Notes: generated from the sequence alone by a model not told the origin. DNA of 64,000 nt from Dehalococcoidia bacterium (GCA_965197965.1 OZ240235.1:549820-613819); one strand, 5' to 3'; shown: positions 6,823 through 31,918, numbered from the stretch's first letter. A program made the numbers and translations.

Positions 6823-7521
6823 TTGCGCCTCAGCACGGTCCTGTTTGACTTCGACGATACTCTCGTTGACTCACTACAGGCGCGTGTGAATGCTCTTGGC
6901 TTGGTTTTCAATCGTGCGGGCATAGATGTCGATGCCGAAGCGTTCATGCTCGGGCTGAAGGGCCGCCAGCTGAAAAATGTGTTGGATGACCTGGAGGCGC
7001 GCGACGGGCGCAATTTAGGGCTTTTTGAAGCGTACAGAAGCACCTACTGGGGCAAACCGCCGGGCACCATCAAGCTGCTTCCAGGTGTGGCAGAGATGCT
7101 TCAGGAGCTGCACCATAGAGGCTTCAAACTGGGGATAGTGACCCAGAAGGGGCGCGACGTTGAGATAGACGGCCGGCGGGTCGGCGCTTGGCACGAGCTG
7201 GCAGAGCTCGGCATGGCGCATATGTTCCCCGTCATGGTGGGCTTTGAGGACGTGAGTCGTTACAAACCCGACCCTGAAGGAATACACATGGCGCTGGACC
7301 AGATCCAAGCGGATGCAGCAGCAACGATGTTCGTGGGTGACGGCGCCGCCGATATAGAAGCGGCACAGGCGGCAGGATGCTGGAGCTGTCACGCTGTATG
7401 GGGTATTCCACAAGAACAGCGCGTTCTGGACGGCGTGAGGCCGCACGCGGTGGCGGAGTCGCCCCAGGCGCTGCTTGATTTCGTTCTAACATTTAGTCAG
7501 GAGGTCGTGAGGCATGGCTGA
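6823..7521 (+). CDS. HAD-superfamily hydrolase (phosphatase-like)
   Basis: 232 aa with a non-ATG (TTG) start. HAD motif I is LFDFDDTLVDS and the late motif is FVGDGAADIEAA. The stop is TGA at 7519-7521, a genuine TGA stop. Confidence 0.8.
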   Translation: MRLSTVLFDFDDTLVDSLQARVNALGLVFNRAGIDVDAEAFMLGLKGRQLKNVLDDLEARDGRNLGLFEAYRSTYWGKPPGTIKLLPGVAEMLQELHHRGFKLGIVTQKGRDVEIDGRRVGAWHELAELGMAHMFPVMVGFEDVSRYKPDPEGIHMALDQIQADAAATMFVGDGAADIEAAQAAGCWSCHAVWGIPQEQRVLDGVRPHAVAESPQALLDFVLTFSQEVVRHG

Positions 7522-8227
7522 AGAGTCCAAAGAGCAGCCCTACAAACGAGGCATGGTGGTTGTAGCCCATCCGGATGACGCCGAGTTCGGTTGCTCTGCT
7601 TCCGTGGCCAGGTGGGTCAGAGAAGGCATCGAATTCGTCTACGTCCTTTGCACCGATGGCAGCAAAGGCACCTCCGACCGAAACATCACGTCAGAACAAC
7701 TGGTTGAAATACGCAAGCAGGAGCAGATAAGCGCGGGCAAAGTCCTAGGCCTCAAAGACGTGGTCTTTCTGGGCTATCCCGACGGTTATCTACAGCCCAC
7801 CCTAGACCTGCGCCGCGATATCGCCCGTGAGATACGCCGGTTCCGTCCCGATATCCTCATCACAACCAGTCCCACGCGTACGCTGACTGGCACCGGCTAC
7901 CTGGGCCATCCCGACCATTTCGCGGCGGGCGAAGCCGCGCTATCCGCCGTCTACCCGGCCGCACGGGACCACCTGACCTTTCCCGAACTGCTGGAACAGG
8001 GTTTGGAGCCTCACAAAGTACGGGAGGTCCTGATCATAGGGCACGACATATCCAATAAGTGGGTAGACGTTACTTCCGGCATAGACATCGCAATTCAGGC
8101 CCTGCTGGAGCACAAGAGCCAGGTTGGCGGCACCGCCGGGGAGCGCATGAAAGAGTGGAAGAGCCAGGCTGGCAAAGAGCACGGAATGGAATACGCCGAG
8201 GGATTCAAGAGCTTTACGTTGTCCTAG
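7514..8227 (+). CDS. PIG-L/LmbE family N-acetylglucosaminyl deacetylase
   Basis: 237 aa. It has VVAHPDDAEFG and GHPDH, the zinc-site motifs characteristic of PIG-L deacetylases. It overlaps the upstream gene by 8 nt. Confidence 0.8.
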   Translation: MAEESKEQPYKRGMVVVAHPDDAEFGCSASVARWVREGIEFVYVLCTDGSKGTSDRNITSEQLVEIRKQEQISAGKVLGLKDVVFLGYPDGYLQPTLDLRRDIAREIRRFRPDILITTSPTRTLTGTGYLGHPDHFAAGEAALSAVYPAARDHLTFPELLEQGLEPHKVREVLIIGHDISNKWVDVTSGIDIAIQALLEHKSQVGGTAGERMKEWKSQAGKEHGMEYAEGFKSFTLS

Positions 8228-8241
8228 CTCAGCTGCCTAAT

Positions 8242-9225
8242 CTATTTGTTGGCAGCGCGCTCCGCCCGTATCCGCTTGTAGTCCTCACGTCTCCAGCGAT
8301 AGGGCAAGCTGACGACCGTCCCCGCTTCTGTGGCCGTTTCCAGAACGTTCAGCGCGTCTTCCAGTATCACACGATGCTGGTCCGCATTGTTCGGCTCACC
8401 CATGGGCCGGCCAAATGGGAAGCGGACGTGGGCAACGCGAGGGGGATGAATCTTCTCCGCCATCTCCTTGTACATCATGACGAGCACCGTGGAGATGCCC
8501 TCCCCTTCTATTGCCCTTGCTATCAGTCCGCCGGACCGGTTGCACACCGGTCAGGTGGACGTGAGCACCACAGCCTGAACGCCGTCGGCCTTCAGACGTT
8601 TCGCCACTTCGGGAGCGGTCTCAGTGCTGAGCAGGTCGGGACGTTGTATGTACCCCATGAACGAGTAGTTGGTGCTCGCGAGACTCCCTATAACCCCTTC
8701 CTGTTCCAGTTCTACCATTCTGTCCAACGGGAAGACGCAGTTGATGTCTTCACGAGGCCCGGAGAGGTCGTAATGCAGGTGGGCCAGGCGAAGCTCATCG
8801 CGTGGAACATCCTTGGGAATCGCCCGCCACGACCAGTCGCCCAGGCCTTCCGGCCCATCCGTCTGGTAGGGTTCCTGACCCTCCACGTAAACGCCGCCTG
8901 TGGTAATCAAGGCGAATTTGGCCTGGTTCAGCGGCGCCGCAACAGGCGACCACGGTATTCCTTCCACATCCACGCCGCGGGCCCGTGCTCCGGCCAGAGC
9001 TCTGCCCCGTTCTTCCCATACCTCCAGGTAGTCCCATAGCGCCGCGGCGTCTCCAGCTTCCCTACTCTCAACCGCCTTTTGCAGCAGTCCGTTGAGAAAC
9101 TCCGCCTGCTCCTCCTCGCTCATGTGCGTGCCCACGTAGCGAATGAAGGAAAAAGCCGCCGTATTTGCGGGTGTCCTCAGTATCCGCCCCATGAGCGCTT
9201 TAACGTCTGTTGATTGCTCCGTCAT
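8242..9225 (-). CDS. Glycine/sarcosine/betaine/D-proline reductase selenoprotein-B (GRDB) family protein, with in-frame UGA read as selenocysteine
   Basis: Track ORFs 8551..9225 (224 aa) and 8242..8547 (101 aa) are in the same frame, separated only by TGA (8553-8551) plus CCG. The joined ~327-aa product reads ...ADGVQAVVLTST-U-PVCNRSGGLIARAIEGEGISTVLV, which contains a UxxC motif. ALITTGGV, NCVFPLDRMVELEQEGVIGSLA and FPFGRPMGEP fit the GRDB family as I remember it. Confidence 0.75.
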
Positions 9226-9339
9226 ATCACCAGCCCAGGTCAGGATGCCTTGATTTTAGCAGAAGGCCTAACGGCGTTGAAATCATGCTCCCTACCCAAG
9301 TAGAGTGTAGCCGTCTGTCCGCCCGCTGTCATACCGGAG

Positions 9340-10845
9340 TTGACGCCAATGACCCACGAGACGCCGCCTCAACTGTCCAAATCCAGGTTCGTAGCCGGGC
9401 TTCAGTGCCTGAAACGACTCTATCTGGACTGCTATCACCGCGAGCTTGCCGACCCCGTGGAAGCGGGCCAGCAAGCTGTCTTTGATACCGGAACCACCGT
9501 CGGCGAGCTGGCAAGACAGCGATTCCCCAAAGGGGTCCTCGTTGCGGAGCAGTACCATGAGCACTCCCAAGCAGTGCAATCAACGCAGGTTCTACTGTCT
9601 GACGTCTCCGTCCCCGTCATGTACGAGCCGGCCTTCGCCTTCCAGAGCATCAGGACGCGGGTCGACGTCCTCGTCCGGGCCGACGGGCAGGAGTTCGACC
9701 TAATCGAGGTCAAGTCGACCGCCAGCCCCAAGGAGCAGCACGTCCCTGACGTTGCAATTCAAATGTACGTTGTAGATGGCTGCGGCGTCCCCGTCAGAAG
9801 GGCGTATCTCATGCATATCAATACCGGATACGTTTACCAGGGCGGAGCCTATGACCTGGAACGGCTCTTCTCCCTAGAAGACGTTACGGACAAGGCCAGG
9901 ACGTACATAGCGGAACAAGTGCCCGGGGCCCTGTCGCAGATGTGGGAGTCGCTGCAGCTTGCCGAGACCCCGGACATCGAAACTGGCCCCCACTGCACGA
10001 CCCCCTATCGGTGTCCCTTCTTTGGACACTGCCATGCAGGTGAGCCGGAGCACCCAATTAGAGACTTGCCCCGGTTGAGGCATACAGACCGCAAACGCCT
10101 GAAGGAATCCGGAATACGGGACGTAGGCAGCATACCGCTGGACTTCCCGGGCCTCTTGCAGATACAGCGTCGAGTGCGGGACAGCGTGACCATGTGCCGA
10201 CCTTTCGTAGGTCCCAACTTGGCGTCGAGGCTGGCGGAGATAGACTTCCCGGCTGCCTTCCTGGACTTTGAGACGCTGGGCCCTGCCGTTCCCATATTCG
10301 CGGGCACAAGGCCCTACCAGACAATTCCGTTCCAGTGGTCGCTGCACGTGATGAACCGGGACGGCGGGCTGAGGCACAGCGCCTTCCTGGACAACGGCCT
10401 AGACGACCCTAGGGAGCGTCTGATAGTCGCTCTGCTTGAAGCAACGCCCTCCGAAGGCTCGATAGTTGTGTACTCGGGCTACGAGGCAACGGTTCTCAGA
10501 GAACTGGCGCAGGCGTTCCCCCAGTACGAAGGCCACCTGCTGGCCCTGTGCGACAGAATGGTCGATCTCCTGAGGATTATAAGGGAGAGCTACTATCACC
10601 CGGAGTTGCACGGCAGCTTCTCCATCAAATCGGTTGCGCCGGTCCTGGCTCCGGGACTGGCTTACGACGACCTAGAGGTGCCGGAGGGCATGGCGGCCGC
10701 GGCGGCCTACGCCCGCCTACTTACCGACGACCCGCTGGAGAGCGAGAGGGCCGCGACCAGGGAAGCGCTGCTGGCCTACTGCGAGCGTGACACGCTGGCT
10801 ATGGTCCGGGTATACGAAGCGCTGCTGGCGAAGGCGCGCCAGTAA
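9340..10845 (+). CDS. DUF2779 domain protein (Cas4/RecB-like PD-(D/E)xK nuclease superfamily with a Cys cluster)
   Basis: 501 aa. The N-terminus LSKSRFVAGLQCLKRLYL is typical of DUF2779. It has DLIEVKS (ExK-like) and the Cys cluster HCTTPYRCPFFGHCH. The start is TTG 9340 or ATG 9349. Confidence 0.7.
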   Translation: MTPMTHETPPQLSKSRFVAGLQCLKRLYLDCYHRELADPVEAGQQAVFDTGTTVGELARQRFPKGVLVAEQYHEHSQAVQSTQVLLSDVSVPVMYEPAFAFQSIRTRVDVLVRADGQEFDLIEVKSTASPKEQHVPDVAIQMYVVDGCGVPVRRAYLMHINTGYVYQGGAYDLERLFSLEDVTDKARTYIAEQVPGALSQMWESLQLAETPDIETGPHCTTPYRCPFFGHCHAGEPEHPIRDLPRLRHTDRKRLKESGIRDVGSIPLDFPGLLQIQRRVRDSVTMCRPFVGPNLASRLAEIDFPAAFLDFETLGPAVPIFAGTRPYQTIPFQWSLHVMNRDGGLRHSAFLDNGLDDPRERLIVALLEATPSEGSIVVYSGYEATVLRELAQAFPQYEGHLLALCDRMVDLLRIIRESYYHPELHGSFSIKSVAPVLAPGLAYDDLEVPEGMAAAAAYARLLTDDPLESERAATREALLAYCERDTLAMVRVYEALLAKARQ

Positions 10846-10863
10846 CGCTGAAAGGAGGCTTTG

Positions 10864-11595
10864 ATGAAGATTCTGGGCGACAAAGTAATTAACAGAACCG
10901 AAAACTGGAAGACGGTCAAGCATTTCTATGGACTAAAAGGAGAGGCCAAGGCCCGTCTCACTGGGAGCTTACTGGCGCATCACCTTGGAACCGATTCCGG
11001 GCAAATACCCGTTGATTCCGACGATGTAGAGATTGGACTTTTCTGGTATGGAATGCGCGATTACGTGCATCAGGACGACAGACAGACTAAAAAATTGAAG
11101 GCAGTTTTCGCGAACATCTATAATCTCTTATTCTCTAATTTGCGGAATGATTTGAAGGTATTTCGCCAAAAACTCCCCTACAGATTCCCGGAAATGAGAC
11201 CCTATCACTATGCTCTGCCTGACCCGACATACGAGTCTAAGTTTTACAACAACCTTACAAGTACTGAAGTAGATGTTGTCTTGGAAACTTCTGATTACCT
11301 CTTGATTGGAGAATGTAAACACGAAAGCGATCTTGGTGTGAATCCTGACTACATACTCGTGCATCAGGTTATTCGCCAGTATGTCATGGCAAGAATTCTC
11401 GTTAATCATATTTCAGCATCATCTAATGTTAAGGAAAAGAAGGTTGTTCCGTTTATTGTTGGAGATAAAGATAAGCTTCCGAGCATTAGAAACAGCACGC
11501 AAATCAAATTCATGACGGAAAGCGAGATGCCCTCGATGAGCAAGAAAAACGTGCTCACATGGAACTGCATAGAGAAACTAGCTGGCGGACCTTAA
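10864..11595 (+). CDS. Hypothetical protein with a PD-(D/E)xK-like motif, in a low-GC insertion
   Basis: The ATG at 10864 is preceded by AGGAGG 5 nt upstream. The ~243-aa product contains EVDVVLETSDYLLIGECKHESD (a D...ExK arrangement). The stretch is visibly AT-rich compared with both flanks. I recognise no family. Confidence 0.5.
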   Translation: MKILGDKVINRTENWKTVKHFYGLKGEAKARLTGSLLAHHLGTDSGQIPVDSDDVEIGLFWYGMRDYVHQDDRQTKKLKAVFANIYNLLFSNLRNDLKVFRQKLPYRFPEMRPYHYALPDPTYESKFYNNLTSTEVDVVLETSDYLLIGECKHESDLGVNPDYILVHQVIRQYVMARILVNHISASSNVKEKKVVPFIVGDKDKLPSIRNSTQIKFMTESEMPSMSKKNVLTWNCIEKLAGGP

Positions 11596-11721
11596 CCGGC
11601 AGTGGGGTCTCACCCCACCGTCCAGATACTCATGGATAACATGCTGACCCACGGATTCAGCCACCTAGGCGAGATGTGGCTCCTCCGTGGGATGCAGGGA
11701 ATGACTGGGACGCCCGTGTAA
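11596..11721 (+). pseudogene. C-terminal remnant of a DinB/YfiT-like protein
   Basis: The frame opening directly at the TAA of the preceding ORF reads PAVGSHPTVQILMDNMLTHGFSHLGEMWLLRGMQGMTGTPV*. The H..H.GE...LRG pattern resembles DinB-family C-termini. No N-terminal part is present. Confidence 0.35.
11602..11618 (+). terminator. GC-rich hairpin just after the low-GC ORF
   Basis: GTGGGGT-ctc-ACCCCAC forms a 7-bp stem 7 nt after the TAA. There is no T-tract, so terminator function is uncertain. Confidence 0.25.
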
Positions 11722-11766
11722 CCCAGCAGTCGCGCACCCGTGCTGAGTTGCTGGTCCGGGTCGCCA

Positions 11767-12165
11767 TCACTCCCTGGCATCCAGCCGGTTGAGGCTGCCG
11801 CTCCATCCCAGGATGCGGTCATCCGCAGTCAGCAACCGGTGTCCGCCCAAGGCCGTCGCCACTATGATGCGGTCGGCGGGGTCTGCGTGTAAGTCGGGCA
11901 AAGCGCTGGCTCGGATTGCAATATCGCCATCGACTGGGATCTCCGCTACTCCTTGGCCGAGCAATTCTCGACGCCACAGCCCTACGTCCTCCGGGAAGTC
12001 CAAGCGGCTCTTGGCCCTAAGCATGGCAACCTCCCAGAACGTCATAGCAGACACGGCGAGTTCCCGGTCGCGGAGAGCATCATCAAGCGTCCGTCTTGCG
12101 CCTGTTCCCAAGCGAGATTCACCGGTCCACAGCCAGACAAGCGTATGGGTGTCCGCTAGAATCAC
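11767..12165 (-). CDS. vapC: Type II toxin, PIN-domain VapC family
   Basis: 132 aa. MILADTHTLVWLWTG...MTFWEVAMLRAK...DPADRIIVATAL...LLTADDRIL carries the conserved PIN acidic residues. A 4-nt ATGA-type overlap links it to the upstream antitoxin gene. Confidence 0.85.
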   Translation of the reverse strand: MILADTHTLVWLWTGESRLGTGARRTLDDALRDRELAVSAMTFWEVAMLRAKSRLDFPEDVGLWRRELLGQGVAEIPVDGDIAIRASALPDLHADPADRIIVATALGGHRLLTADDRILGWSGSLNRLDARE

Positions 12166-12446
12166 GGATTCAACACCCGGTCAGGGTCGACCTCCGCTTC
12201 CCACTCGACGTCAATGGGACTGATGATATCGCCGACTATCTTCATCCGGCTGCGACCCGCGCCAAAGAGAGACTTGGGCCGTTCTCGGTAAGGCACCAGG
12301 CGGGAGACCGGCTTCCCGTTCTTGGTGATGACAATCTCGCCCCCGCCTTTGGCCACCTCGTCCATAAGCTGAAGGCACTTGGACTTGAACTCCGACGCCT
12401 TCATAGTCCGCGTGCCGATGGGTGTGTCGTTGTTTGCATCCGCCAC
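12162..12446 (-). CDS. Type II antitoxin, Phd/YefM family
   Basis: 94 aa. MKASEFKSKCLQLMDEVAKGGGEIVITKNGKPVSRLVPY is a typical Phd/YefM N-domain. The GTG start at 12446 has GGAGGA 6 nt upstream. Confidence 0.8.
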   Translation of the reverse strand: MADANNDTPIGTRTMKASEFKSKCLQLMDEVAKGGGEIVITKNGKPVSRLVPYRERPKSLFGAGRSRMKIVGDIISPIDVEWEAEVDPDRVLNP

Positions 12447-12527
12447 GCCGTTCCTCCAGACCTAGTCTGCTTCTATAATACCATAGTCACGACCATGGTC
12501 ACATGCACCCAGCCCGGCGCAGCTAAA

Positions 12528-14264
12528 TCAACGGCGCCACTCGGCAATGTTCCACAGCTCGCTGTCCCAGCCATTGATTCGAACGCCCCTCAGGGTGTCC
12601 AGGTGGGCCGAAACGATGCCCCGGTTAACCAGAGGAATCTCGTAGTAGCCCTGTACCAGCATGTCGTTCATGCTCTTGACAAGCTCGGTGCGGTCGGGGC
12701 CGATGGGGGTATGGGAAAGCTCCTCGACCAGCCCATCGAAATCAGGATCGCAGGACCGTGCGACGTTGCTTCCGCCCCAGTTGCTGTCCGCGTCCGGTAT
12801 CTCGTCGCAGGTCAAGCCAACAAGATACTGCTGAGGGTCGATGTCCGGACCGGTGGCGTACATCTGAATATCGGCGAAAAAGCGGACGTAAACCTGCTCC
12901 TTGTCGTCCACAGGGTCGCCGCCGAAGAAAACCGCAGCGTCGTGGTGGATGATCTCGGTCCCGATGCCGATTTGCGCCCACCAGTCTTTGACGAGGGCCT
13001 GTGTCTCCTGCCGAATATCGTTCGTGGATGTTTGGTAAGTGAGTCGGAGAGGGACACCGTTGTATTCGCGGACGCTGTCTCCGTCGGTGTCGATCACACC
13101 GTTATTGTCGAGCAGCTTGTTGGCGCCGTCGATGTCCTGGGTGAGACAGCCATCGTTGGCAGTGGAGACGTAAGCCGGGGGCCCAACGATGAGATTACAC
13201 GTGGGCTCACCGGCAAACCCGTATAGACGCTCCGAAATCAGGCCGCGGTCGATGGACATGGACATGGCCTGGGCTATGGGTGTGAAGGCGAGAAGCGGGT
13301 GGGGATTTGTACCGCCCAGGTACTCTGAGCGGTCATCTCCAAGACCAGGGTCGGGGTTGGTCTGGTTCAAGACTATACGTTCCACCAAGCTGGAGAACGC
13401 GGCTATCACCTTTCCTTTGCCCATCGCTTCCATGTTGGCCAAGTCCGTGGGGTCTATCTGGAGATTCCAGGCGTAGTCGGTGTTGCCGTGCTCCAAGACC
13501 GTCTGGGCTGCGGACAAGGCTTCGCCGCCACCCTGGAGGACAACGCGCCTGAAGTAGGGTATCTCGCCGTAATAGTGAGGATTGCGCTTGTAGACGGCCT
13601 TCTCATCGGGCACGAACTCCACTATTCGGTACGGCCCCGGCCCAAGGGGAGCATGGTTCTCTTCCTCGCAACCTGCAGCAGCCGCGCCGATGCAATCGCC
13701 GAACTGGGCCTGGCTGAGAATGGGGACTCCCGTGCCAACGAAGGCGCTGTAGGGGTAGGGTGTGGGGGCGTGAAAGGTGACTTTCACGGTCAGGTCATCC
13801 AAAGCCTCTACAGCTGTTACGTCAGCGAACGCACTGCTGGCGGTGCATCCTGTGGCTTCATCTACGCAGTATTGCCAGGTGAACACAACGTCATCGGCGG
13901 TGAGGCCGCTGCCGTCAGACCACTTGAGATTGTCCCTGAGCCTCCACGTGATGGAAGTCAGATCAGAGGAGATGCCCTCATTCTGCAGAGTGGGAATTTC
14001 GGCGGCAAGCGCCGGGACCAGAGCGCCGTCTGGATCGTACTTGGCCAACGGTTCCAGGGTGATGGCTCCCGCGTCTCGATCTTTGAATCCACCGGAAAGA
14101 TAGGGATTGGGAATGGAGGGAGCTTGCCAGTAGACCAGGGTTAGCGTCCTATCGTCGTCGGACGCAGGGTTGGAGAGAACGGCAACTACTAAGGTGACTA
14201 CGACAGCGGCGGTCAGGAAAAAGGCGAGTCCGCCAAGGATTACGGTGCGATTCATTGTTTGCAT
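12528..14264 (-). CDS. ABC transporter substrate-binding protein, family 5 (peptide/nickel/opine type)
   Basis: 578 aa with an N-terminal membrane/signal segment. LKWSDGSGLTADDVVFTW and the overall length fit SBP_bac_5. No cognate permease genes are adjacent. Confidence 0.8.
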   Translation of the reverse strand: MQTMNRTVILGGLAFFLTAAVVVTLVVAVLSNPASDDDRTLTLVYWQAPSIPNPYLSGGFKDRDAGAITLEPLAKYDPDGALVPALAAEIPTLQNEGISSDLTSITWRLRDNLKWSDGSGLTADDVVFTWQYCVDEATGCTASSAFADVTAVEALDDLTVKVTFHAPTPYPYSAFVGTGVPILSQAQFGDCIGAAAAGCEEENHAPLGPGPYRIVEFVPDEKAVYKRNPHYYGEIPYFRRVVLQGGGEALSAAQTVLEHGNTDYAWNLQIDPTDLANMEAMGKGKVIAAFSSLVERIVLNQTNPDPGLGDDRSEYLGGTNPHPLLAFTPIAQAMSMSIDRGLISERLYGFAGEPTCNLIVGPPAYVSTANDGCLTQDIDGANKLLDNNGVIDTDGDSVREYNGVPLRLTYQTSTNDIRQETQALVKDWWAQIGIGTEIIHHDAAVFFGGDPVDDKEQVYVRFFADIQMYATGPDIDPQQYLVGLTCDEIPDADSNWGGSNVARSCDPDFDGLVEELSHTPIGPDRTELVKSMNDMLVQGYYEIPLVNRGIVSAHLDTLRGVRINGWDSELWNIAEWRR

Positions 14265-14537
14265 ACGGTGTCCTTTTCCAAGCTAGAGTTATCTCACCTA
14301 TGACCGGCAAGGACGGCTTGCGGTCAGGTCTACGTGTACCATTATACCTGCCTTCTGCAATTCCATTCGTGGTGCCTCCAGCGCCGTGGAATAGACTACG
14401 GCCTGAGACACCCATTACCGTGCCCACGGCTTTGTGCTAAACTTAATATGTAGGCTTCCAGCCGTAGGCCCGGGGCCAGAAATCGCTTACAACAACCTAT
14501 AGAAGCTCTCTTTTTCCGCCTCAGGAGGGTACGACGC

Positions 14538-15707
14538 TTGCTCCGCAGTCTGGCGCGCCGGAAGCTACGAACCTCGCTTACCGTCCTCGGCATTGCTGTA
14601 GGCATTTGGACGCTCATAGTCATGAGCGCCATGGCCAACAAACTCACCGCCATAGTGGATGTTGGCTCCACCTATTTCGACAACAAGATCATGGTAAGTG
14701 ATGTGACGAATCCCGCTTTTGGTTTCGGCCTGACCCCCATGTCCGCCAGTGTGGTTGACCAAATTGCCCAAATCCAGGGAGTGGCGGTCGCAGCGCCGCG
14801 GGCACAGTTCCTCCTTGACCCTGATGACAGTGGTTCCGGCTTTGTCTCACCGGATTTTGTCGTCGCTTACAGGGCTGGCTTTGACCAAGGTTACGAGACA
14901 TTTCGGACAGAGATCTCCCAGGGGCGGCAGACCACGCTGGAGGATGAGGGGCAGCGAGTAGTTGTTCTGGGCGCGGACATAGCCAGAAAGTTTGACGTCA
15001 ACCCCAGCGACACCTTTGACATAAGAGGCGTCCCATTTGAAGTCATCGGGGTGATGGAGCCGACGTTGACGTTCTTTGACACGACCGCAATCATTCCTTG
15101 GACCGCCGGGCAGGAGATGCTGACCCGTGACAGAGCTGTTCCATCGGACGTGGACCCAACCGACCAAGAGCTGACGTCGATGGTGCTCGTGTACCCAGAA
15201 GCAGGAGCTGACACAGACTCCCTGATTCAGGCCATTGAAACGAGCTTCCCCGGATTGCGAGCAGCTTCCGGTGAAGACTTTGATGAGCAATTTGGGTCTA
15301 CCATCGCCATCTTCAACGCTATCATCCTGAGTGTGGCGCTGATCAGCGTAGTGGTTGGAGGTCTTTCCGTGATCAACACCATGACGATAAGCGTTGCGGA
15401 GCGCACCCGGGAGATCGGCATCAAGCGGGCGATCGGAGCGACGCGGCAAAGGATCATGCGAGAACTGGTTTGGGAATCCGGAGTCATGGGCTTTGTTGGT
15501 GGATTGGCCGGGCTGGGCCTTGCCGGCCTTGTAATCTACTTCTCCAACGACGCTGGTCAGGTCTCCGGTATCATACTGTTCCGGTTGACTCCATGGATTG
15601 CGGGCCTGGGCGTGACTTTCTCGACAATCCTGGGAGCGCTAGCCGGTGTGCTTCCCGCCTGGAAGGCAGCCCGAATGGACCCCGTGGAAGCGCTGAGGTA
15701 CAGCTAG
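14538..15707 (+). CDS. ABC transporter permease, FtsX/MacB-like
   Basis: 389 aa. It has an N-terminal TM segment, a large periplasmic loop and a C-terminal FtsX-type 3-TM bundle (ERTREIGIKRAIGATRQRI). Confidence 0.85.
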   Translation: MLRSLARRKLRTSLTVLGIAVGIWTLIVMSAMANKLTAIVDVGSTYFDNKIMVSDVTNPAFGFGLTPMSASVVDQIAQIQGVAVAAPRAQFLLDPDDSGSGFVSPDFVVAYRAGFDQGYETFRTEISQGRQTTLEDEGQRVVVLGADIARKFDVNPSDTFDIRGVPFEVIGVMEPTLTFFDTTAIIPWTAGQEMLTRDRAVPSDVDPTDQELTSMVLVYPEAGADTDSLIQAIETSFPGLRAASGEDFDEQFGSTIAIFNAIILSVALISVVVGGLSVINTMTISVAERTREIGIKRAIGATRQRIMRELVWESGVMGFVGGLAGLGLAGLVIYFSNDAGQVSGIILFRLTPWIAGLGVTFSTILGALAGVLPAWKAARMDPVEALRYS

Positions 15708-15714
15708 GAACGCT

Positions 15715-16410
15715 ATGGCCTTTTTGGAAGCGCACAACCTCCACAAGACCTACCGGCTAAACCGCAACAATGTCGTGCGCGCTCTTCGCGGCGTTGACAT
15801 CTCAGTGGAGGTCGGCGAGATGGTGGGTATCATGGGACCATCCGGCTGTGGCAAGAGCACGCTGATGCACATCCTGGGTCTGCTGCATTCGGCTGACCTG
15901 AGAACGAGTCCGCCGCCGACCCTGGTCATCGGCGACAACGACGTCACAGGGCTGAGTGACCGCGAGCGCACTCAAATGCGCGCGAAACAGATGGGCTTTG
16001 TGTTTCAAACGTTCAACCTGGTGCCAACCCTGACGGCACTGGAAAACGTCGCGCTTCCCGCCGAGTACGCGGGCTGGCGCCGGCGTGAGGCCAGGGCCAC
16101 AGCGGCGGAATCTCTGAAGTTAGTGGGCTTAGAGGAACGCTCGGCGCACAAGCCTACGGAGCTATCCGGTGGACAACAGCAGCGAGTCGCCATAGCGCGG
16201 GCTCTGGTCACGGAGCCAGCCCTACTGCTGGCGGACGAACCTACCGGGAACCTCGATTCGGAAAACACGGAAGAGGTCATGGCTCTCCTCCAACGGTTCA
16301 ACCGGGAGCTTGGGCAGACGATTGTCCTGGTGACACACGACACGAGAGTGAGCGAGGTGTGCAGTCGCGTGCTGACCATGTCCGACGGCGTGATTACGAA
16401 CGTGAGCTAA
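15715..16410 (+). CDS. ABC transporter ATP-binding protein (MacB/LolD-like)
   Basis: 231 aa. Walker A is GPSGCGKST, the signature is LSGGQQQRVAIARAL and Walker B is LLLADEPT. Confidence 0.9.
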   Translation: MAFLEAHNLHKTYRLNRNNVVRALRGVDISVEVGEMVGIMGPSGCGKSTLMHILGLLHSADLRTSPPPTLVIGDNDVTGLSDRERTQMRAKQMGFVFQTFNLVPTLTALENVALPAEYAGWRRREARATAAESLKLVGLEERSAHKPTELSGGQQQRVAIARALVTEPALLLADEPTGNLDSENTEEVMALLQRFNRELGQTIVLVTHDTRVSEVCSRVLTMSDGVITNVS

Positions 16411-16430
16411 CAACCACTTGGAGCCTCGGG

Positions 16431-17978
16431 TCAGGGTTCCGTGTACAACTCAGTATCCGGATGGAACTGGAACCACGCGAACCAGAACGACATGTGCGTG
16501 GGTATCCGCGCCAGCTTCTCCGACCCGTCTGTCGTGTTGACTAGAAACTCCTCGGTCACCTCCCATGTCCCGCCCGCGTCGTCCACTATCACGGACGGTA
16601 TGCCGGAGCCGCCGCCGTCCGGCGCCAGCCTGAACGACCTGCCTCCGCGGTAGTACGCCCTCGCGCCCTCGCTTCCAGCCGACCCCAGCACCAATATCTC
16701 CTCTCCTCCCACCACGTCGTTGACTATGCGGCTCCTCCGCAGCGCATCGGAGGAGTAAGCCTTGTAGCTCTCGTTCAGCTGTACCCCTAGCACTATGTCC
16801 TTTGTTTCAAGCCGTTCATCCCGTTGTGGGACTGGAAACATCGTCTCAGGCGAATTGAAGTATCTGTAGTAGATCGCCTGGGGATTCTCCTCGGGCACGT
16901 AGAATTCGGCGGGATACAGTCCCGTCTCCTGAGCCAGCACCGTAGTATCGGGATGAAGCTCCAGCCACTCCTGCCACGTCGTGAGCATAACAGGGAAGAA
17001 GTCCAGCTTTATCCCAGAGTCCCATAATGGCCCTATGATCGGCTCCATGGTGAGATGGTTCCACAGCGAGTTGGTCAGCCGGTCGTACATGACCTTGTTG
17101 CTGCGATACAGCATCCCCGACGTGCCGAAAGTGGTTGGCTCTCCGTTGATCCTGGCGGAATACACTATTCCGCTGCCGCAGAGCGTTCAGTAAGCCAGGG
17201 CAATCGGTTCGCCCCCCAACACGTCATTGGCCATTTCGTGGGCGTTCACAATGCGCAGCGGGTACGCCCTGTGCTCTCCGTTGATGGACACGCCAAAGAC
17301 CCGATCGGTAGGCAGCAAATAGTCCTGCTCCCCCGCCGAAACGACCGGGGCGTTTTGAAGATCCGGGATCCCGTCTGGCCGGACTCCTCCCCACGCGATT
17401 TCAAATACGTTTATTCGCGAGCCTTGCGCTGCCGGCTCCAGAAACTCGGCGAACCTGGGGTCAATCAGGCTCATGATCTCGCTCTTCCACCGCACGTACC
17501 CATCGGGCGGATGGTACTCGTCGGCGTTGTTGCCTAACCACTCCATCCACTCATTCCAGGCGCGGTAGCCACCCCTCAACTCCTGCCCCGTTATCGCCGA
17601 GATGCCACCGTTGAGCTCCTCTATTATGTCATCGTCCCCAAAGAAGAAGCGGAGCGTCTCTATCATTACTGGGACCATCGACTTATCTTTATGGAAGATG
17701 GCGAGTGCGATGGCCTCGTGCGTATCAAAGAGATCGTAGTCCCGGTCCGAGAAGAGCCGGAACATGTTCTCGGTGGAGTCGTAGCCCGCCGCAGGAGTCG
17801 GCGCAGCCGTCGTCGGGGTCTGGGTAGGTGAAGCCGTCGATGTCTCCTCGGCCGGCACGGTGGGCTCTTCCGTACCGGAGCAGGCAACAGCAGCAGCCGC
17901 CATAAACCCGGCCAACAGCAGTCCGAAATAAGGCAAGAGCCTGCTCAAAGTTTTCTTTCCTGGGACGTTTCGATTCAA
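16431..17978 (-). CDS. DUF3179 domain protein with in-frame UGA (candidate selenocysteine) at the first Cys of the family CxxC motif
   Basis: Track ORFs 17187..18128 and 16431..17165 are in frame. The junction reads ...NDVLGGEPIALAY-U(TGA 17189-17187)-TLCGSGIVYSARINGEPTTFGTSGMLYRSNKVMYDRLTNSLW, and the C-terminus reads FWFAWFQFHPDT. DUF3179 proteins have YCPLC(N/G)SG at this place. The open frame extends to 18128 but overlaps the divergent methyltransferase. A TTG at 17978 precedes a signal/lipoprotein-like segment (LLLAGFMAAAAVAC), so the true start is uncertain. Confidence 0.7.
17155..17173 (-). promoter_or_regulatory. Candidate bacterial SECIS hairpin for the DUF3179 UGA
   Basis: The mRNA reads UGA-ACGCUCUGCGGCA-GCGGAAUA-GUG-UAUUCCGC. 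This is a perfect 8-bp stem with a GUG apical loop, starting 13 nt 3' of the UGA. Confidence 0.55.
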
Positions 17979-18064
17979 CCTAGTAGTTGTAACTCTAATT
18001 ATATTGCATGCGACCCTATTATCCACCTCTACCGGTTCCGCTTTCGTAGTATCATGGATTGGAC

Positions 18065-18688
18065 ATGCCGAAGAACCCCAAGACGCTAGTCGAGGAAGGC
18101 TACGACCAAGTAGCCGAGGCCTACTCACGCCTTGAAGGCGACAATGAGTGGCCCAGGATGAAATGGCTGGGTAAGGTCCTAGCCAGACTGGACCCTGGGA
18201 GCGCCGTTCTTGACCTGGGCTGTGGATCCGGCGACCCGGCGGACATTGAGATCGCCAGGCTTCACCGGATTACCGGTGTGGACATATCCAACGTTCAAGT
18301 AGAACTGGCGCGTCGGAATGTTCCCCAAGGGAACTTCATCCACAGAGACCTCGGGGCGCTGGATTTCCCCGAAAGGTCTTTCGATGCCGTGGTCTCCTTC
18401 TATACGCTGGAGCACCTTCCCCGGGAGCAGCATGGCGAAATACTCAAGCGCATCCACGGCTGGCTGCAACCGGGGGGACTGCTGCTGTTTAGCCACGAAG
18501 CTGGCGACATGAACGATGTAACCGGTCAGTGGCTTGGCGTTCCCATGTTCCTCAGCGTATTTGATCCCGAGACGATGCGAAAACTTGTCCAGGACTCCGG
18601 TTTCCAGCTTGTTGAGACGGGGATCGAAAGCCAGTTGGAGCAAGGTCGAGAAGTACCCTACCTTTGGATATTAGCCCAGAGACGGTGA
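18065..18688 (+). CDS. Class I SAM-dependent methyltransferase
   Basis: About 207 aa. Motif I is VLDLGCGSGDP and the post-I acidic residue is in GVDIS. The track ORF starts at TTG 18059; ATG 18065 is more likely. Confidence 0.85.
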   Translation: MPKNPKTLVEEGYDQVAEAYSRLEGDNEWPRMKWLGKVLARLDPGSAVLDLGCGSGDPADIEIARLHRITGVDISNVQVELARRNVPQGNFIHRDLGALDFPERSFDAVVSFYTLEHLPREQHGEILKRIHGWLQPGGLLLFSHEAGDMNDVTGQWLGVPMFLSVFDPETMRKLVQDSGFQLVETGIESQLEQGREVPYLWILAQRR

Positions 18689-18709
18689 CATCGATCGAGA
18701 GGAATAACT

Positions 18710-19270
18710 TTGCGATACATTAGCAGGAATGAGTGGTTCTTCTACGGATTCATTGCCGCCGCCGTGCTGGCGTTATCGCTGCCCCTGTTCCCCTACCGGT
18801 GGCACACCTTCCTGCATATCGCTGGCGCGGTGGTTTTCCTTGGAAACATCATAGTCACCGCTGCATGGATGTTCATGGCGGAGCGAACGCATAGCGCCAA
18901 TGTCATACACTTCTCCGCCAAGGCAGTTATCCGTGCCGACCTCCTCTTCACCCTACCTGGTGTGCTCCTGGTACTGTTGAACGGGCTTGTCATGGTGTTT
19001 GACCGCTGGGGTGGCTGGAGCGCGCTTCACCAGTTGTCCTGGATCAGTGTCGCTCTGGCCCTGTTCACTGCATCCGGCGTGATATGGGTGGGAATACTTA
19101 TCCCTGTCCAGCATCGCATGGCTGTCTTCTCAAACCCGGCGGACTACCCCAACTCTCTGCCTCAGCAATTCTCCTCGGCCCTCCGCAGGTGGTACTTCTG
19201 GGGTGCGATTGCAATTGCCTTGCCCATCTGCTCGCTCTACCTGATGGTCAACAAACCAGCCTTAGGCTAG
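18710..19270 (+). CDS. Integral membrane protein (DUF2269-like)
   Basis: 186 aa with four to five hydrophobic helices, including FLHIAGAVVFLGNIIVTAAW. The family assignment is from memory only. Confidence 0.5.
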   Translation: MRYISRNEWFFYGFIAAAVLALSLPLFPYRWHTFLHIAGAVVFLGNIIVTAAWMFMAERTHSANVIHFSAKAVIRADLLFTLPGVLLVLLNGLVMVFDRWGGWSALHQLSWISVALALFTASGVIWVGILIPVQHRMAVFSNPADYPNSLPQQFSSALRRWYFWGAIAIALPICSLYLMVNKPALG

Positions 19271-19628
19271 GGTTGGGGGAACGCCGTACTCTCGGATCGA
19301 ACGTCCAACGTTCCGCGCCCGTCTCGGCGTCGAGCGCCGCTACCCGCGTGTACATCGTGGAGAGGTAGAGGATACCATCGACCATGATGGGAGTCGACTG
19401 GAATGGACCCGGCTGCGTGCCGTACTCTTCGAGAGGCGTCTCGTTCGGCTCCCACTTCCAGACAATCTCCAGTTCGCCGACGTTGGCGGCCGTGATTTCC
19501 TCGGCCTCCGAGTACTTGCTATGTGCCTGGTCGGAACCGACGGACGGCCAGCCGGTTGTTGGGTCAGGCTCTGGGCCGCATGCGACTGCGGCCGATATCA
19601 GGACTGTTGTGACAACAAGGCTCTTCAT
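19248..19628 (-). pseudogene. N-terminal fragment of a PQQ-dependent (quinoprotein) dehydrogenase
   Basis: 126 aa with a lipoprotein-like signal (ISAAVACG). ANVGELEIVWKWEP...PFQSTPIMVDGILYLSTMYTRVAALDAETGAERWTFDP matches the first propeller blades of quinoprotein dehydrogenases. These are normally 550 aa or more, and the rest is missing. The 3' end overlaps the convergent membrane-protein gene. Confidence 0.6.
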
Positions 19629-19768
19629 GAACTGGACTCCGATTGGGAATGACCGACCGCGAGCAGGTCATACTGGCTTGCCGGCGTGCGATCGACGGGG
19701 AAAGCTTGGTGCAGTTCCGCGCGGCTTCTGGGTCTTCGCCTTCGTCCCCAACAGCTACAGAAAGGCGC

Positions 19769-19843
19769 TGGTGGGCCCGGCTGGATTCGAACCAACGACC
19801 AATCGGTTATGAGCCGACCGCTCTGCCACTGAGCTACGGGCCC
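19769..19843 (-). tRNA. tRNA with CAU anticodon (Met, or lysidine-dependent Ile2)
   Basis: GGGCCCG-TA-GCTC-AGTGGCA-GAGC-G-GTCGG-CTCATAA-CCGAT-TGGTC-GTTGG-TTCGAAT-CCAGC-CGGGCCC-A-CCA folds into a full cloverleaf with encoded CCA. It is not initiator-like: 1-72 is paired and there is no GGG/CCC anticodon stem. The acceptor C4-G69/C5-G68 and the variable/T arm resemble E. coli ileX. Confidence 0.9.
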
Positions 19844-19861
19844 GTAATGACGCTGGCTTTC

Positions 19862-19891
19862 ATGATTGCTCAACCAGACGGGGCTTGTCAA
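19862..19891 (-). promoter_or_regulatory. Candidate promoter for the tRNA(CAU) gene
   Basis: On the minus strand there is a perfect TTGACA (19891-19886), an 18-nt spacer, then AATCAT (19867-19862), ending ~18 nt upstream of the tRNA 5' end. A second TTGACA and a 7-bp inverted repeat (AACGCTG/CAGCGTT) lie just upstream. Confidence 0.35.
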
Positions 19892-19979
19892 CGCTGAATC
19901 GCAGCGTTTGTCAAACGCATCTCGCCCGCATATCCCATGCTTTTCGACGAGACCTGAAGCAGACCACGAGACAGACGGG

Positions 19980-20438
19980 TCAGGATGCGCTGAACTTCTT
20001 TATCGCTTCCAACGACTCTTCGGCGTGTTGCTCCATGCTCTGAGCATCCTGGACAATGTGCCTGACCACTCCCTCTTTGTCTATGACGAACGTGACTCGG
20101 CTATCGCCAATGGTCTCCTCATTGAAGACCCCAAAAGCTCTGGAGGCTTCAAACTTGGGGAAGTCGGATACCAAAGGGAACTCCAGTCCACAGTGGCCGG
20201 CGAAGGCCCCCTGAGACGGTGCGGCGTCTGTGCTTGCACCCAGAACCTGGGTGTCCAGCTGCTGGAAGTCCGAGAGCAGGCTCTGGAACTTCCGCAGCTC
20301 CCGCTCTCAGCCGCCGGTGAAAGCCCTGGCGTAGAAGGCGATGACGAGGTTCTGCTTGCCTTTGAAATCCGCCAGCCTGATTTCCTGACGGTCGCCGGTA
20401 GTGAACCCAACGTCTGGGGTATGGTCACCTATGTTCAT
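19980..20438 (-). CDS. Peroxiredoxin (AhpC/TSA-Bcp type) with UGA/selenocysteine at the peroxidatic position
   Basis: My reverse translation from ATG 20438 reads MNIGDHTPDVGFTTGDRQEIRLADFKGKQNLVIAFYARAFTGG-U(TGA 20309-20307)-ERELRKFQSLLSDFQQLDTQVLGASTDAAPSQGAFAGHCGLEFPLVSDFPKFEASRAFGVFNEE.... Peroxiredoxins have FYPxAFTxxC(T/S)xE here. Only the last 64 aa appears in the ORF track (19980..20174). Confidence 0.8.
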
Positions 20439-20473
20439 ACTGCACCTCTTGAGCTTTGATGTGAGCGCTCAGG

Positions 20474-21826
20474 CTATAGGCCGAGCGTTTTCCTGTATTC
20501 CGGATCCCAGTAGGCGTATACGCCCTTGGACACCATATCGTCAAGGCTGCTTGTTGGGATTGGACGCTTATCAGCCGGGCTATCGGCGGTCACGCCCCCT
20601 TCTATCAGCTTCTGGTACTCCTCCTCGGAATGGCCAAGCTCTTCTACTATGTAGCGGTGGTTGCCCTCGCCGAGCTTGGGGCCAGGGCCCTTTATGGAGA
20701 CCGGCGTGTTGCTCAGCTTCCAAGGCCGGCCCATGAGCACCCGCGTACCCAGTGTGGGATCGTCCGAGGGTACTTTCTCCAGGAATCCGCGCTTCCAGTA
20801 ATGTACGTTGGTGTTCATATCGCGGGAGTCCATAACGGGCCCCGCCGGTACACCTGCGTCCTGCAACTTTTCCATCACGTCCCACTTGCTATGCTTCTCA
20901 GTCCACTCTTTGATGATACCGTCAAGCTCATCGTGGTGCTTCCAGCGGTTCAAGTGGCCAATGTACTTGGGGTCGTCCACCAAGTCTTCCCTGTCGATGG
21001 TGCGGCAAAGCGCTTCCCACTCGTGGTCGTCGCGCACAGAGAGCACGGCCCAGCCGTCTTCATCGGCGCAGGGGTAGCAGCCCTGCGGAGCGAACCAAGG
21101 ATGGCGGTTCCCTATGCGCTTGGAGTTGTCCTTGCCGTTGGCTATCCAGTCCATGAGGAACTCACTGATGTGGAACACGCCCAGCTGATACATGCCAATG
21201 TCCACCCACATACCCTTTCCCGTCTTCTTTCGGTGCCTGAGCGCCATGGAGAGGGCGAACAGACACGTCCACGAGGCCACAAAGTCCACGTAGGACTGCC
21301 CCACCTTGGATGGAATGTCTCCGTTGTATCCGGTGAGGTGGGTCAGGCCATGGGTGGCCTCCTGAGACGTGGCCACCGCGGGATAATCCGAGTAGGGGCC
21401 CTTGCCGTGACCGTATCCGGTGTTGGACATCATGATGATGTCAGGCTTCATCTCCTTCAGCTTGGGCCAGTCCATGCCCCAGTTGCGGGTGACCCTGGGA
21501 GTGAAATTCTCCATGAACACGTCCGCCGAGAGCACAAGCTCCTTCAGAACCTTGAGTCCTTCAGGGTTGCGCAGATCAAGTACCAGGGACTTCTTACCGC
21601 GGTTCACCACGTGGAAAGTAGGCGTGCGATTCCAGGGGTCGGCGCCGGGGTCGTTCTCGGGATAGGCTCCGGAAAGCATGCCGGTGCGTATAGGCTCAAC
21701 GCGAGTGGGGCCCTCTATCTTGATGACCTCAGCGCCAAGATCGGCCATTACCCCTGCCGCATAGGGGAACGCGAAGATAGCGGAGGTGTCTACTACTCTG
21801 ATTCCTTCCAATGGCAGTCTACCCAT
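20474..21826 (-). CDS. CoA-transferase family III (CaiB/BaiF-like)
   Basis: 450 aa. LEGIRVVDTSAIFAFPYAAGVMADLGAEVIKIEGP is the family III N-terminal signature region. Confidence 0.9.
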   Translation of the reverse strand: MGRLPLEGIRVVDTSAIFAFPYAAGVMADLGAEVIKIEGPTRVEPIRTGMLSGAYPENDPGADPWNRTPTFHVVNRGKKSLVLDLRNPEGLKVLKELVLSADVFMENFTPRVTRNWGMDWPKLKEMKPDIIMMSNTGYGHGKGPYSDYPAVATSQEATHGLTHLTGYNGDIPSKVGQSYVDFVASWTCLFALSMALRHRKKTGKGMWVDIGMYQLGVFHISEFLMDWIANGKDNSKRIGNRHPWFAPQGCYPCADEDGWAVLSVRDDHEWEALCRTIDREDLVDDPKYIGHLNRWKHHDELDGIIKEWTEKHSKWDVMEKLQDAGVPAGPVMDSRDMNTNVHYWKRGFLEKVPSDDPTLGTRVLMGRPWKLSNTPVSIKGPGPKLGEGNHRYIVEELGHSEEEYQKLIEGGVTADSPADKRPIPTSSLDDMVSKGVYAYWDPEYRKTLGL

Positions 21827-24813: not shown

Positions 24814-24888
24814 GCGGGGGTAGCTCAGTGGTAGAGCCCCTGCCTTCCAAGCAGGCTGTCGCGGGTTCGAGTCCCGTCCCCCGCTCCA
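24814..24888 (+). tRNA. tRNA-Gly (UCC)
   Basis: GCGGGGG-TA-GCTC-AGTGGTA-GAGC-C-CCTGC-CTTCCAA-GCAGG-CTGTC-GCGGG-TTCGAGT-CCCGT-CCCCCGC-T-CCA folds into a cloverleaf. The discriminator is U and CCA is encoded. Confidence 0.9.
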
Positions 24889-25103
24889 CGGCTATCTGTA
24901 TTTATGCCTATATATCGCAAATATTTCCATTAGTTATCACTTCCTGTATCATCTTGTGCTTCTCGTGTCTGACAATCCTTGGCTCCGGACATGGGGATTC
25001 GACCGGGGAGTCGAAACCGAGGGACTGAAGGCGTTGGCAATGTCATGCAGAACTGCTCGGACCACCCTGCAGGGTTAGCATCCCTGCAAATCGATAGCCC
25101 GTA

Positions 25104-25140
25104 GAGCCGCCCATTTAATCGGGGCGGCTCCTCTTGTTTG
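25104..25140 (+). terminator. Intrinsic-terminator-like hairpin
   Basis: GAGCCGCCC (25104-25112), a 9-nt loop, GGGCGGCTC (25122-25130), then CTCTTGTTTG. A second hairpin, TGCAGGG/CCCTGCA, lies at 25068-25088. Confidence 0.35.
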
Positions 25141-25587: not shown

Positions 25588-25599
25588 CTCGGGTATCTT

Positions 25600-27787: not shown

Positions 27788-27842
27788 TCCAATCCGCAGT
27801 GGCTTTCCTGTTGCCAGGAAGCCCGAGCGATTGACCTCCCAC

Positions 27843-31905: not shown

Positions 31906-31918
31906 ATCTAGTCTCCTT

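Follow-up and report, generated by a model that had tools for sequence, protein, structure and literature searches.

Three predicted selenoprotein genes within 12 kb of a Dehalococcoidia genome, two of them with a selected RNA hairpin after the UGA codon

The 64,000-nucleotide stretch of DNA analysed here, hereafter the window (Dehalococcoidia bacterium, GCA_965197965.1 OZ240235.1:549820-613819), very probably contains three genuine selenoprotein genes within 12 kb, in which UGA would be decoded as selenocysteine (Sec) through the standard bacterial SECIS/SelB route. The predicted products are a PrdB/GrdB-like protein, a DUF3179 protein and an AhpE-type peroxiredoxin (Table 1). Downstream of two of the three TGAs lies an RNA hairpin under selection, as shown here by covariation in the PrdB-like gene and by a freeze of synonymous sites in the DUF3179 gene. 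All three families are long known and catalogued as selenoproteins with these motifs (PMC9312934; PMC1088965), and the discovery value of the finding is low.

Table 1. Predicted selenoprotein genes of the window, with their putative Sec codons and candidate hairpins
Feature	Position	Strand	Details
PrdB/GrdB-like gene, predicted selenoprotein	8242..9225	minus	327 residues including Sec225; ATG 9225; TAG 8244-8242
Putative Sec codon (UGA), PrdB-like	8553-8551	minus	
Candidate SECIS, PrdB-like	8522..8540	minus	core stem CGGUCC/GGACUG, loop GGC; loop begins 18 nt after UGA
DUF3179 gene, predicted selenoprotein	16431..17966	minus	motif U-T-L-C; TGA stop 16433-16431
Putative Sec codon (UGA), DUF3179	17189-17187	minus	
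Candidate SECIS, DUF3179	17155..17173	minus	GCGGAAUA-GUG-UAUUCCGC; loop begins 21 nt after UGA
AhpE-type peroxiredoxin gene, predicted selenoprotein	19980..20438	minus	152 residues, Sec44; TGA stop 19982-19980
Putative Sec codon (UGA), peroxiredoxin	20309-20307	minus	
Long stem-loop after the UGA, preferred candidate hairpin, peroxiredoxin	20257..20299	minus	-25.8 kcal/mol

Each gene carries one in-frame TGA, and its translation is otherwise continuous across that codon. A preliminary description of the window had placed three in-frame TGAs at redox positions of the cysteine type, two in UxxC motifs and one at a peroxidatic site; its coordinates proved exact and all three placements were borne out. 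The comparison of Sec with Cys forms that it proposed sets every TGA opposite a cysteine of full-length homologues (CPxC, CTLC and the peroxidatic Cys). In the PrdB-like protein, the residue lies in the context ...VVLTST-U-PVC..., a UxxC motif (U-P-V-C) whose U stands opposite the first Cys of CPxC in Cys homologues, and the TIGR04483 PrdB profile spans it (residues 92-313, Sec at 225, 190 bits). The DUF3179 protein reads ...IALAY-U-TLCGSG..., again a UxxC motif, with U opposite the first Cys of CTLCG in full-length (540-residue) Cys homologues and within the span of the PF11376 DUF3179 profile (residues 252-559, Sec at 314, 263 bits against a cut-off of 27). The peroxiredoxin has ...AFTGG-U-ERE..., a TxxU motif (T-G-G-U) at the peroxidatic position, where Cys homologues show AFTGGCERE; the PF00578 AhpC-TSA profile crosses the TGA here too (residues 3-128, Sec at 44, 105.5 bits). 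Its best solved relative is AhpE of M. tuberculosis (1xxu), in which U falls opposite chain residue 45, the Cys of AFTGIC, which we take to be the peroxidatic Cys.

Conservation of the codon is extensive. TGA is present in 90 of 90 DUF3179 orthologues, with identity down to 58%, a set that includes 80 loci of species-representative Dehalococcoidia and Chloroflexota genomes together with the loci L001 and L002 and the window; eight neighbouring DUF3179 paralogues have TGC instead. Among 65 loci homologous to the PrdB-like gene, 62 keep TGA, down to about 35% protein identity, and the remaining three have lost the motif (GGC or GAC); its close relatives comprise 62 Sec forms and none with Cys. 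For the peroxiredoxin, TGA occurs in all 19 loci that cover the site and is retained down to 36% identity. An error of sequencing or assembly, turning TGC or TGT into TGA, has next to no probability and is already refuted, the same codon being found in dozens of assemblies made independently from short or long reads.

Past the TGA, all three genes diverge mainly at third codon positions, like coding sequence. The differences per codon position (1/2/3) downstream and upstream, respectively, are 0.20/0.12/0.55 and 0.21/0.19/0.61 for the PrdB-like gene, 0.12/0.09/0.36 and 0.07/0.04/0.39 for DUF3179, and 0.20/0.13/0.48 and 0.21/0.16/0.50 for the peroxiredoxin, and the 70-100 codons compared downstream contain no further stop. 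These results bear on the reading that the TGAs are true stops of pseudogenes or naturally truncated genes, with the downstream frames as relics. It matches the annotation produced by gene callers: close database homologues are nearly all fragments that begin or end at the TGA, peroxiredoxin relatives are split into 46 and about 99 residues, and the syntenic public contig L001 has the three genes called as 43+97, 237+245 and 224+84 residues, in keeping with the earlier expectation that automated calling would fragment them. Yet the TGA persists in 90, 62 and 19 independent sequences, the downstream codons stay open under third-position-dominated divergence, and the Pfam domains run on beyond it. 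Judged from these alignments, the conservation data already refute the true-stop reading, which we regard as extremely improbable.

Elsewhere in the window TGA is an ordinary stop. It terminates 12 of the 36 predicted genes, and the genetic code is therefore not reassigned; the four examples listed beforehand, a HAD hydrolase (7519-7521), a lipoprotein (27843-27845), the gene ending at 29953-29955, which encodes a fn3/cadherin-like protein, and the peroxiredoxin itself (19980-19982), are all correct. No other predicted gene of the window has an internal in-frame TGA. A genome-wide reassignment of TGA to Trp or Gly (code 4 or 25) is accordingly about as improbable as a sequencing error and is already refuted within the window, where the genes stopping at TGA have lengths that match standard-code calls in a relative. 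The preliminary description had named TGA at many non-Cys positions as the sign of such a code; the search for it returned only three internal TGAs, each at a Cys position rather than at a Trp or Gly position. Its own interpretation, context-dependent Sec decoding, has held up on the Cys-aligned and conserved TGAs, the coding divergence downstream and the twelve TGA terminators. Blind scoring by codon usage, applied to every TGA in the window flanked on either side by 40 or more open codons, ranked these three TGAs first to third; the next candidates are antisense to known genes, and no fourth recoded TGA was found in the window.

Bacterial SECIS elements have been described as having a loop of 3-9 nt with G within its first two positions, a stem of 4-16 bp, a loop start 16-37 nt after the UGA and an energy of -7.5 kcal/mol or lower (PMC13188914). 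The DUF3179 hairpin (-8.9 kcal/mol) lies within all four of these published constraints. Synonymous codon entropy across 89 sequences is 0.14 bit in the hairpin codons compared with 1.03 bit in the rest of the gene, and 17 hairpin nucleotides hardly vary; with so little change in the stem, no covariation signal can arise. The PrdB-like hairpin agrees with the consensus in loop, stem and distance, with a borderline energy in the window's own sequence (-6.0 kcal/mol for the core and -7.5 for a 19-nt piece), where in the same scan a hairpin of -5 or better follows about 16% of all window TGAs. Its support comes from comparison: in 46 sequences, 95.9% of cells pair, versus 11-48% when the partner is slid, compensatory changes occur at three pairs (27 cells), and none of 500 shuffles reaches the observed covariation.

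The peroxiredoxin differs from this pattern. No hairpin after its UGA passes a strict scan for the SECIS consensus, and the preferred candidate has a much longer helix than that consensus and a loop without a leading G. In 11 sequences, 92.9% of its cells pair and two pairs show compensatory change, with a covariation score that is attained in 5 of 500 shuffles. Another fold pairs just as well and shows no covariation, and 11 sequences do not separate the two. A SECIS outside the published consensus is a possibility for this gene. None of the three hairpins has an Rfam match.

In the proposed mechanism, a stem-loop directly after the UGA would recruit SelB with Sec-tRNA(Sec) to the ribosome, so that one UGA per mRNA would be decoded as selenocysteine, and UGAs outside a SECIS context, including the stops of two of these same genes, would terminate translation. 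We infer that the genome carries SelA, SelB, SelD and tRNA-Sec. The statement that the window holds no sel genes or tRNA-Sec was confirmed, with no tRNA-Sec detected and no sel gene in Pfam scans of the predicted genes, and selA, selB, selD and tRNA-Sec were likewise absent from about 2 Mb of related loci that were fetched. A SelD-like match in one of these loci (L081) was rejected as a generic relative of AIR synthase (74 bits, where the cut-off is 125). Other Dehalococcoidia genomes have 46 and 49 selenoproteins in BSepDB, which searched only genomes carrying two or more genes of the Sec pathway (PMC13326102). This supports the machinery at the level of the class only, and the earlier suggestion that this genome probably encodes many more selenoproteins would fit such numbers.

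Readthrough of UGA without a Sec system, with near-cognate insertion of Cys or Trp, or synthesis of two separate polypeptides that assemble later, would accommodate both the missing machinery in these sequences and the off-consensus hairpin of the peroxiredoxin. We nevertheless consider it very improbable: the UGA always occupies the catalytic Cys position, a selected hairpin stands at the canonical distance past it in two genes, and all three families are established selenoproteins. A split into two polypeptides would also halve the UxxC pair, and no conserved start exists for the downstream pieces.

That three such genes fall within 12 kb is a matter of local chance and not a functional cluster. 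The three-gene synteny is limited to the 9 nearest of the fetched loci, which represent 8 genomes. Unrelated genes stand between the three, and they form no operon. The host is an uncultured Dehalococcoidia bacterium and probably lives as a sponge symbiont, a reading based on the isolate names of its relatives and on the eukaryote-like repeat proteins that the window encodes.

Under Sec decoding, the chemistry given here for each protein is inferred. The first product would be a PrdB/GrdB-like orphan whose redox pair is U-P-x-C. It scores above the cut-offs of the GrdB/PrdB superfamily (PF07355, 57.5 against 22; TIGR01918, 73.9 against 65.45), and assignment to the D-proline reductase PrdB equivalog was rejected, as its TIGR04483 score falls below the cut-off of 300 bits. 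No prdA-like partner (pyruvoyl proprotein) adjoins the gene, whose neighbours are PIG-L, HAD and DUF2779 genes, and no partner gene recurs among the 62 PrdB-like loci compared. PrdB of Clostridium sticklandii and the Sargasso Sea "PrdB" share the GRDB superfamily and the UxxC motif with the window protein, which differs in having about 90 extra N-terminal residues. In the Sargasso Sea PrdB (42 Sec forms and 1 Cys form; PMC1088965), as among the close relatives of the window gene, Sec forms outnumber Cys forms. Given these Sec-only close relatives, the N-terminal domain of its own and the lack of a PrdA partner, we tentatively suggest a distinct selenoenzyme of marine and sponge-associated Chloroflexota, maybe not a subunit of D-proline reductase, although this reading is rather unlikely.

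The second product would be a DUF3179 protein whose motif is U-T-L-C; it is probably a lipoprotein (...LLLAGFMAAAAVA-C) located outside the membrane. Its lipobox and start were deduced from the sequence and from the N-termini of homologues; the start is uncertain, GTG 17966 having been chosen in an open frame that extends to 18128. The family is listed among selenoproteins (PMC9312934), and the earliest predicted form (UxxC/T), that of the Olavius algarvensis delta-1 symbiont, has PF11376 and the Sec motif in common with the window protein. In contrast to that form, the window gene belongs to a Dehalococcoidia branch in which all 80 species genomes have the Sec form, and its product has an additional helical domain as well as a lipoprotein signal at the N-terminus.

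In the third product, an AhpE-type peroxiredoxin, Sec would attack the peroxide. The AhpC/TSA fold family is shared with the Sec-peroxiredoxin of marine metagenomes (TxxU) and with AhpE (1xxu, a Cys form), and Sec at the peroxidatic position of T-x-x-U is common to the metagenomic and window proteins. The window protein is nearest to the AhpE subfamily, with 42-45% identity to actinobacterial AhpE; clostridial PrxU (NF040737 equivalog) was rejected on a score of 50 bits, the cut-off being 270. Finally, the PrdB-like and DUF3179 stem-loops resemble the bacterial SECIS of the E. coli fdhF type, generalised by Zhang and Gladyshev, in lying within the coding sequence, and their small loops open with G and then G or U, 18 and 21 nt after the UGA, as in the bacterial consensus.

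Three minus-strand genes in the window, encoding a PrdB/GrdB-like protein, a DUF3179 putative lipoprotein and an AhpE-type peroxiredoxin, each carry a single in-frame TGA, and minus-strand translation places all three TGAs where they were first reported. When Cys was substituted at the TGA, family profiles crossed the site in every protein: PF07355 GRDB and TIGR04483 PrdB in the PrdB-like protein (PrdB match at residues 92-313, Sec 225), PF11376 DUF3179 in the lipoprotein (263 bits, residues 252-559, Sec position 314) and PF00578 AhpC-TSA in the peroxiredoxin (residues 3-128, Sec position 44). A blind scan, in which all window TGAs with at least 40 open codons on each side were scored by codon usage, ranked these TGAs 1, 2 and 3, and its lower-ranked matches were antisense shadows of known genes. 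No fourth selenoprotein gene emerged in the window from the codon-usage scan, or from less strict screening of short extensions past gene ends for a Sec near a protein terminus.

Positions of the selenoprotein reading frames and of neighboring features in the window
Feature	Position	Strand	Detail
PrdB-like frame	9225-8242	-	...VVLTST(TGA)PVCNRSGG..., single TGA at 8553-8551
ORF, no Pfam match	10861-11595	+	244 residues
PIN/Phd toxin-antitoxin pair	11767-12446	-	
Family-5 solute-binding protein	12528-14264	-	578 residues
DUF3179 open frame	18128-16431	-	...EPIALAY(TGA)TLCGSGIVY..., single TGA at 17189-17187
DUF2269 gene	18710-19270		
Truncated PQQ-dependent dehydrogenase	19248-19628	-	profile positions 1-91 of 595 only
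Peroxiredoxin frame	20438-19980	-	...FYARAFTGG(TGA)ERELRKF..., single TGA at 20309-20307
tRNA-Gly	24814-24888		
AlpA-type excisionase	25363-25587		
Fibronectin-III and cadherin-like protein	29953-31905	-	
Leucine-rich-repeat protein	31919-33232	-	
Leucine-rich-repeat protein	34475-36442	-	
Giant ORF	36791-45976	-	3061 residues
Giant ORF	52362-62072	-	3236 residues

The TGA sites pair with Cys in related proteins. The closest database proteins to the DUF3179 protein (76-93% identity) are all fragments of ~245 residues that start just 3′ of the TGA, and at ~60% identity there are full-length homologues (~540 residues), which have CTLCG in place of the window's U-TLCG. Taking one genome per species gave 80 DUF3179 loci, 79 of them titled Dehalococcoidia or Chloroflexota and one (L016) labelled Actinomycetes. 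TGA occupies the orthologous position in 90 of 90 cases, with identities as low as 58%, and eight adjacent paralogues carry TGC. A second Sec-DUF3179 paralogue, ~60% identical and with the same hairpin, lies ~4.5-6.5 kb downstream in seven related loci (L046, L049, L053, L062, L064, L065 and L067). Every PrdB-like homologue at 43-94% identity stops at ...LTST, the TGA site, and remoter full-length proteins have CPxC at this position. Of 65 metagenome loci, 62 have TGA at this codon, and the motif is lost altogether in the other three. A distant GrdB-like selenoprotein gene is also present in related locus L081 (6419, minus strand), with an 8-bp hairpin, a GGC loop and the same 18-nt distance. 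Full-length Chloroflexota homologues of the peroxiredoxin read AFTGGCERE, and against its best solved relative, M. tuberculosis AhpE, the U falls opposite the Cys of AFTGIC (chain residue 45), the peroxidatic Cys. The peroxiredoxin codon is TGA in all 19 loci covering the site; a second Sec-peroxiredoxin, 36% identical, was seen in L058 (154, plus strand).

In all three genes, third codon positions dominate divergence 3′ of the TGA as they do 5′ of it, and the 70-100 codons compared 3′ of the TGA are free of stops; in-frame translation therefore continues. Pseudogenes are excluded by this coding-type divergence together with conservation of the TGA. Sequencing or assembly errors are likewise excluded, as the three TGAs recur across many independent assemblies. 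A reassigned code, in which TGA would be translated generally, is ruled out within the window since TGA terminates 12 of the 36 predicted window genes and is internal only in these three. The four TGAs that the preliminary description had listed as genuine stops are indeed terminators, and the neighboring HAD and PIG-L genes have the same lengths under standard-code calls in a syntenic relative. TGA is the terminator of the DUF3179 gene too (16431-16433, minus strand); both this gene and the peroxiredoxin gene (terminator at 19980-19982, minus strand) have two TGAs per mRNA, one for Sec and one to end translation. The presence of the three TGAs is confirmed, and context-dependent Sec decoding, as originally proposed, is supported by the Sec/Cys pairs, the TGA conservation and the TGA stops elsewhere, making these three predicted selenoprotein genes.

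The expectation that automated calling would fragment such genes holds in the public record. In L001, a syntenic 3.9-Mb contig, gene calls break the three genes into 43 + 97, 237 + 245 and 224 + 84 residues, and peroxiredoxin relatives are called as 46- and ~99-residue pieces in every fetched locus. Some fragments carry the NCBI names “hypothetical protein” or “redoxin domain-containing protein”. Standard callers split the three genes and every close public relative, and therefore gene catalogues of these Dehalococcoidia genomes under-count and mislabel redox enzymes.

Bacterial SECIS elements have a consensus stem of 4-16 bp and a 3-9-nt loop with G in its two initial positions, a loop start 16-37 nt past the UGA, and an energy of -7.5 kcal/mol or lower (PMC13188914). 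The strict scan applied to the candidates assigns a hairpin at or below -7.5 kcal/mol to 6% of the window's TGAs, and one at or below -5 to 16%; the weight given to the candidate hairpins rests on comparative signal, not on a single-sequence fold. The PrdB-like hairpin, CGGUCC-GGC-GGACUG, has its loop start 18 nt after the UGA and a borderline energy in the window's own sequence (-6.0 to -7.5 kcal/mol). Pairing holds in 95.9% of cells over 46 distinct sequences, compared to 11-48% with a slid partner. Compensatory changes occur in three pairs, in one of which U-A becomes A-U through a Ser-to-Thr change matched by a synonymous Gly change, and none of 500 shuffles reached the observed covariation.

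The DUF3179 hairpin, GCGGAAUA-GUG-UAUUCCGC, satisfies all four published SECIS constraints, with an energy of -8.9 kcal/mol and a loop start 21 nt after the UGA. Its stem is nearly invariant, making covariation uninformative. Synonymous sites are instead frozen, with a codon entropy of 0.14 bit in hairpin codons versus 1.03 bit in 85 other conserved codons, and in the TGC paralogues codon choice for these same residues varies freely. A lower helix around this hairpin was dropped, as 89% of its cells pair, no better than shuffles. In the peroxiredoxin gene the UGA is followed by a long helix (-25.8 kcal/mol). One fold shows two compensatory pairs, a score reached by 5 of 500 shuffles; a rival fold pairs equally well, without covariation, and neither is a clean fit to the SECIS consensus. 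An Rfam search returned only two tRNAs at gathering score, and a permissive search of 8000-20600 returned no SECIS family.

As first noted, the window lacks sel genes and tRNA-Sec, based on tRNA searches and Pfam scans of predicted genes. Within ~2 Mb of fetched related loci, aragorn found no tRNA-Sec and no sel genes were found. Searches by tblastn with E. coli SelD and SelB gave weak SelD-like matches only, the best of which (L081, 11033-12037) scores under the cut-off for SelD and is an AIR-synthase relative of the HypE/ThiL type. BSepDB, whose selenoprotein search was limited to genomes carrying two or more Sec pathway genes, includes two from Dehalococcoidia, with 46 and 49 selenoproteins, and one of these shares the isolate-name style of the relatives here (PMC13326102); this would indirectly favor Sec machinery being encoded outside the window.

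The three genes stay together only in the nine closest fetched loci (eight genomes, at least 88% identity) and are interrupted by unrelated genes on both strands, which makes their closeness an accident of lineage. A functional cluster or operon is excluded by these intervening genes and by the loss of synteny beyond those nine loci. As a rough estimate, ~48 selenoprotein genes per 3 Mb (BSepDB) gives ~0.2 expected per 12 kb, and one such triple per genome would therefore not be surprising.

Two window proteins had no exact entry in the public gene index. The relatives are titled Dehalococcoidia, and some isolate names (COS1, RHO3) resemble those of sponge metagenome bins. The window holds leucine-rich-repeat, fibronectin-III and cadherin repeat proteins, typical of sponge symbionts, and the run of eukaryote-like repeat proteins at 29953-36442 (minus strand) fits such a lifestyle. 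In the first giant ORF, leucine-rich repeats occur together with a beta-propeller of the glucose/sorbosone dehydrogenase type and with PPDK_N, the pyruvate phosphate dikinase AMP/ATP-binding domain, and GC content climbs to 0.65-0.67. The second, with cadherin and Ig-like repeats, is a eukaryote-like adhesin.

The tRNA-Gly and excisionase genes are followed by ~2 kb without convincing genes, and the region (24814-27842) may be what is left of an element that had inserted at tRNA-Gly. The truncated PQQ-dependent dehydrogenase runs into the end of the DUF2269 gene and probably represents a remnant produced by rearrangement. The 244-residue ORF, visibly different in composition, adjoins the toxin-antitoxin pair; in L001 the place of this stretch (10861-12446) is taken by an Exo_endo_phos gene and one for a Phd-family antitoxin, and the window's version may be a small insertion. 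The solute-binding protein has 720 residues in L001 (12975-15137), and the shorter form could reflect a deletion or a different start.

No solved relative was found by sequence for the DUF3179 or PrdB-like protein. The AlphaFold model of a DUF3179 Cys homologue is poor (mean pLDDT 61.9, low around CxxC), and a PDB fold search gave nothing below E = 0.04. No new mechanism is revealed; the comparative data on two of the insertion hairpins could be of use in training selenoprotein predictors. In the Sargasso Sea, peroxiredoxin (TxxU) and PrdB (UxxC) ranked second and third in abundance among selenoprotein families, with 42 Sec forms of PrdB versus one Cys form (PMC1088965), and DUF3179 (UxxC/T) has been catalogued since the 2007 Olavius symbiont study (PMC9312934). 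The PrdB-like protein scores under the equivalog cut-off for PrdB, lacks a prdA neighbor and is filed under the GrdB/PrdB superfamily, not as D-proline reductase, while the peroxiredoxin is AhpE-like rather than a clostridial PrxU. The evidence supports the three genes as new members of known selenoprotein families, and they give three further clean examples from a group whose richness in selenoproteins had been reported before.
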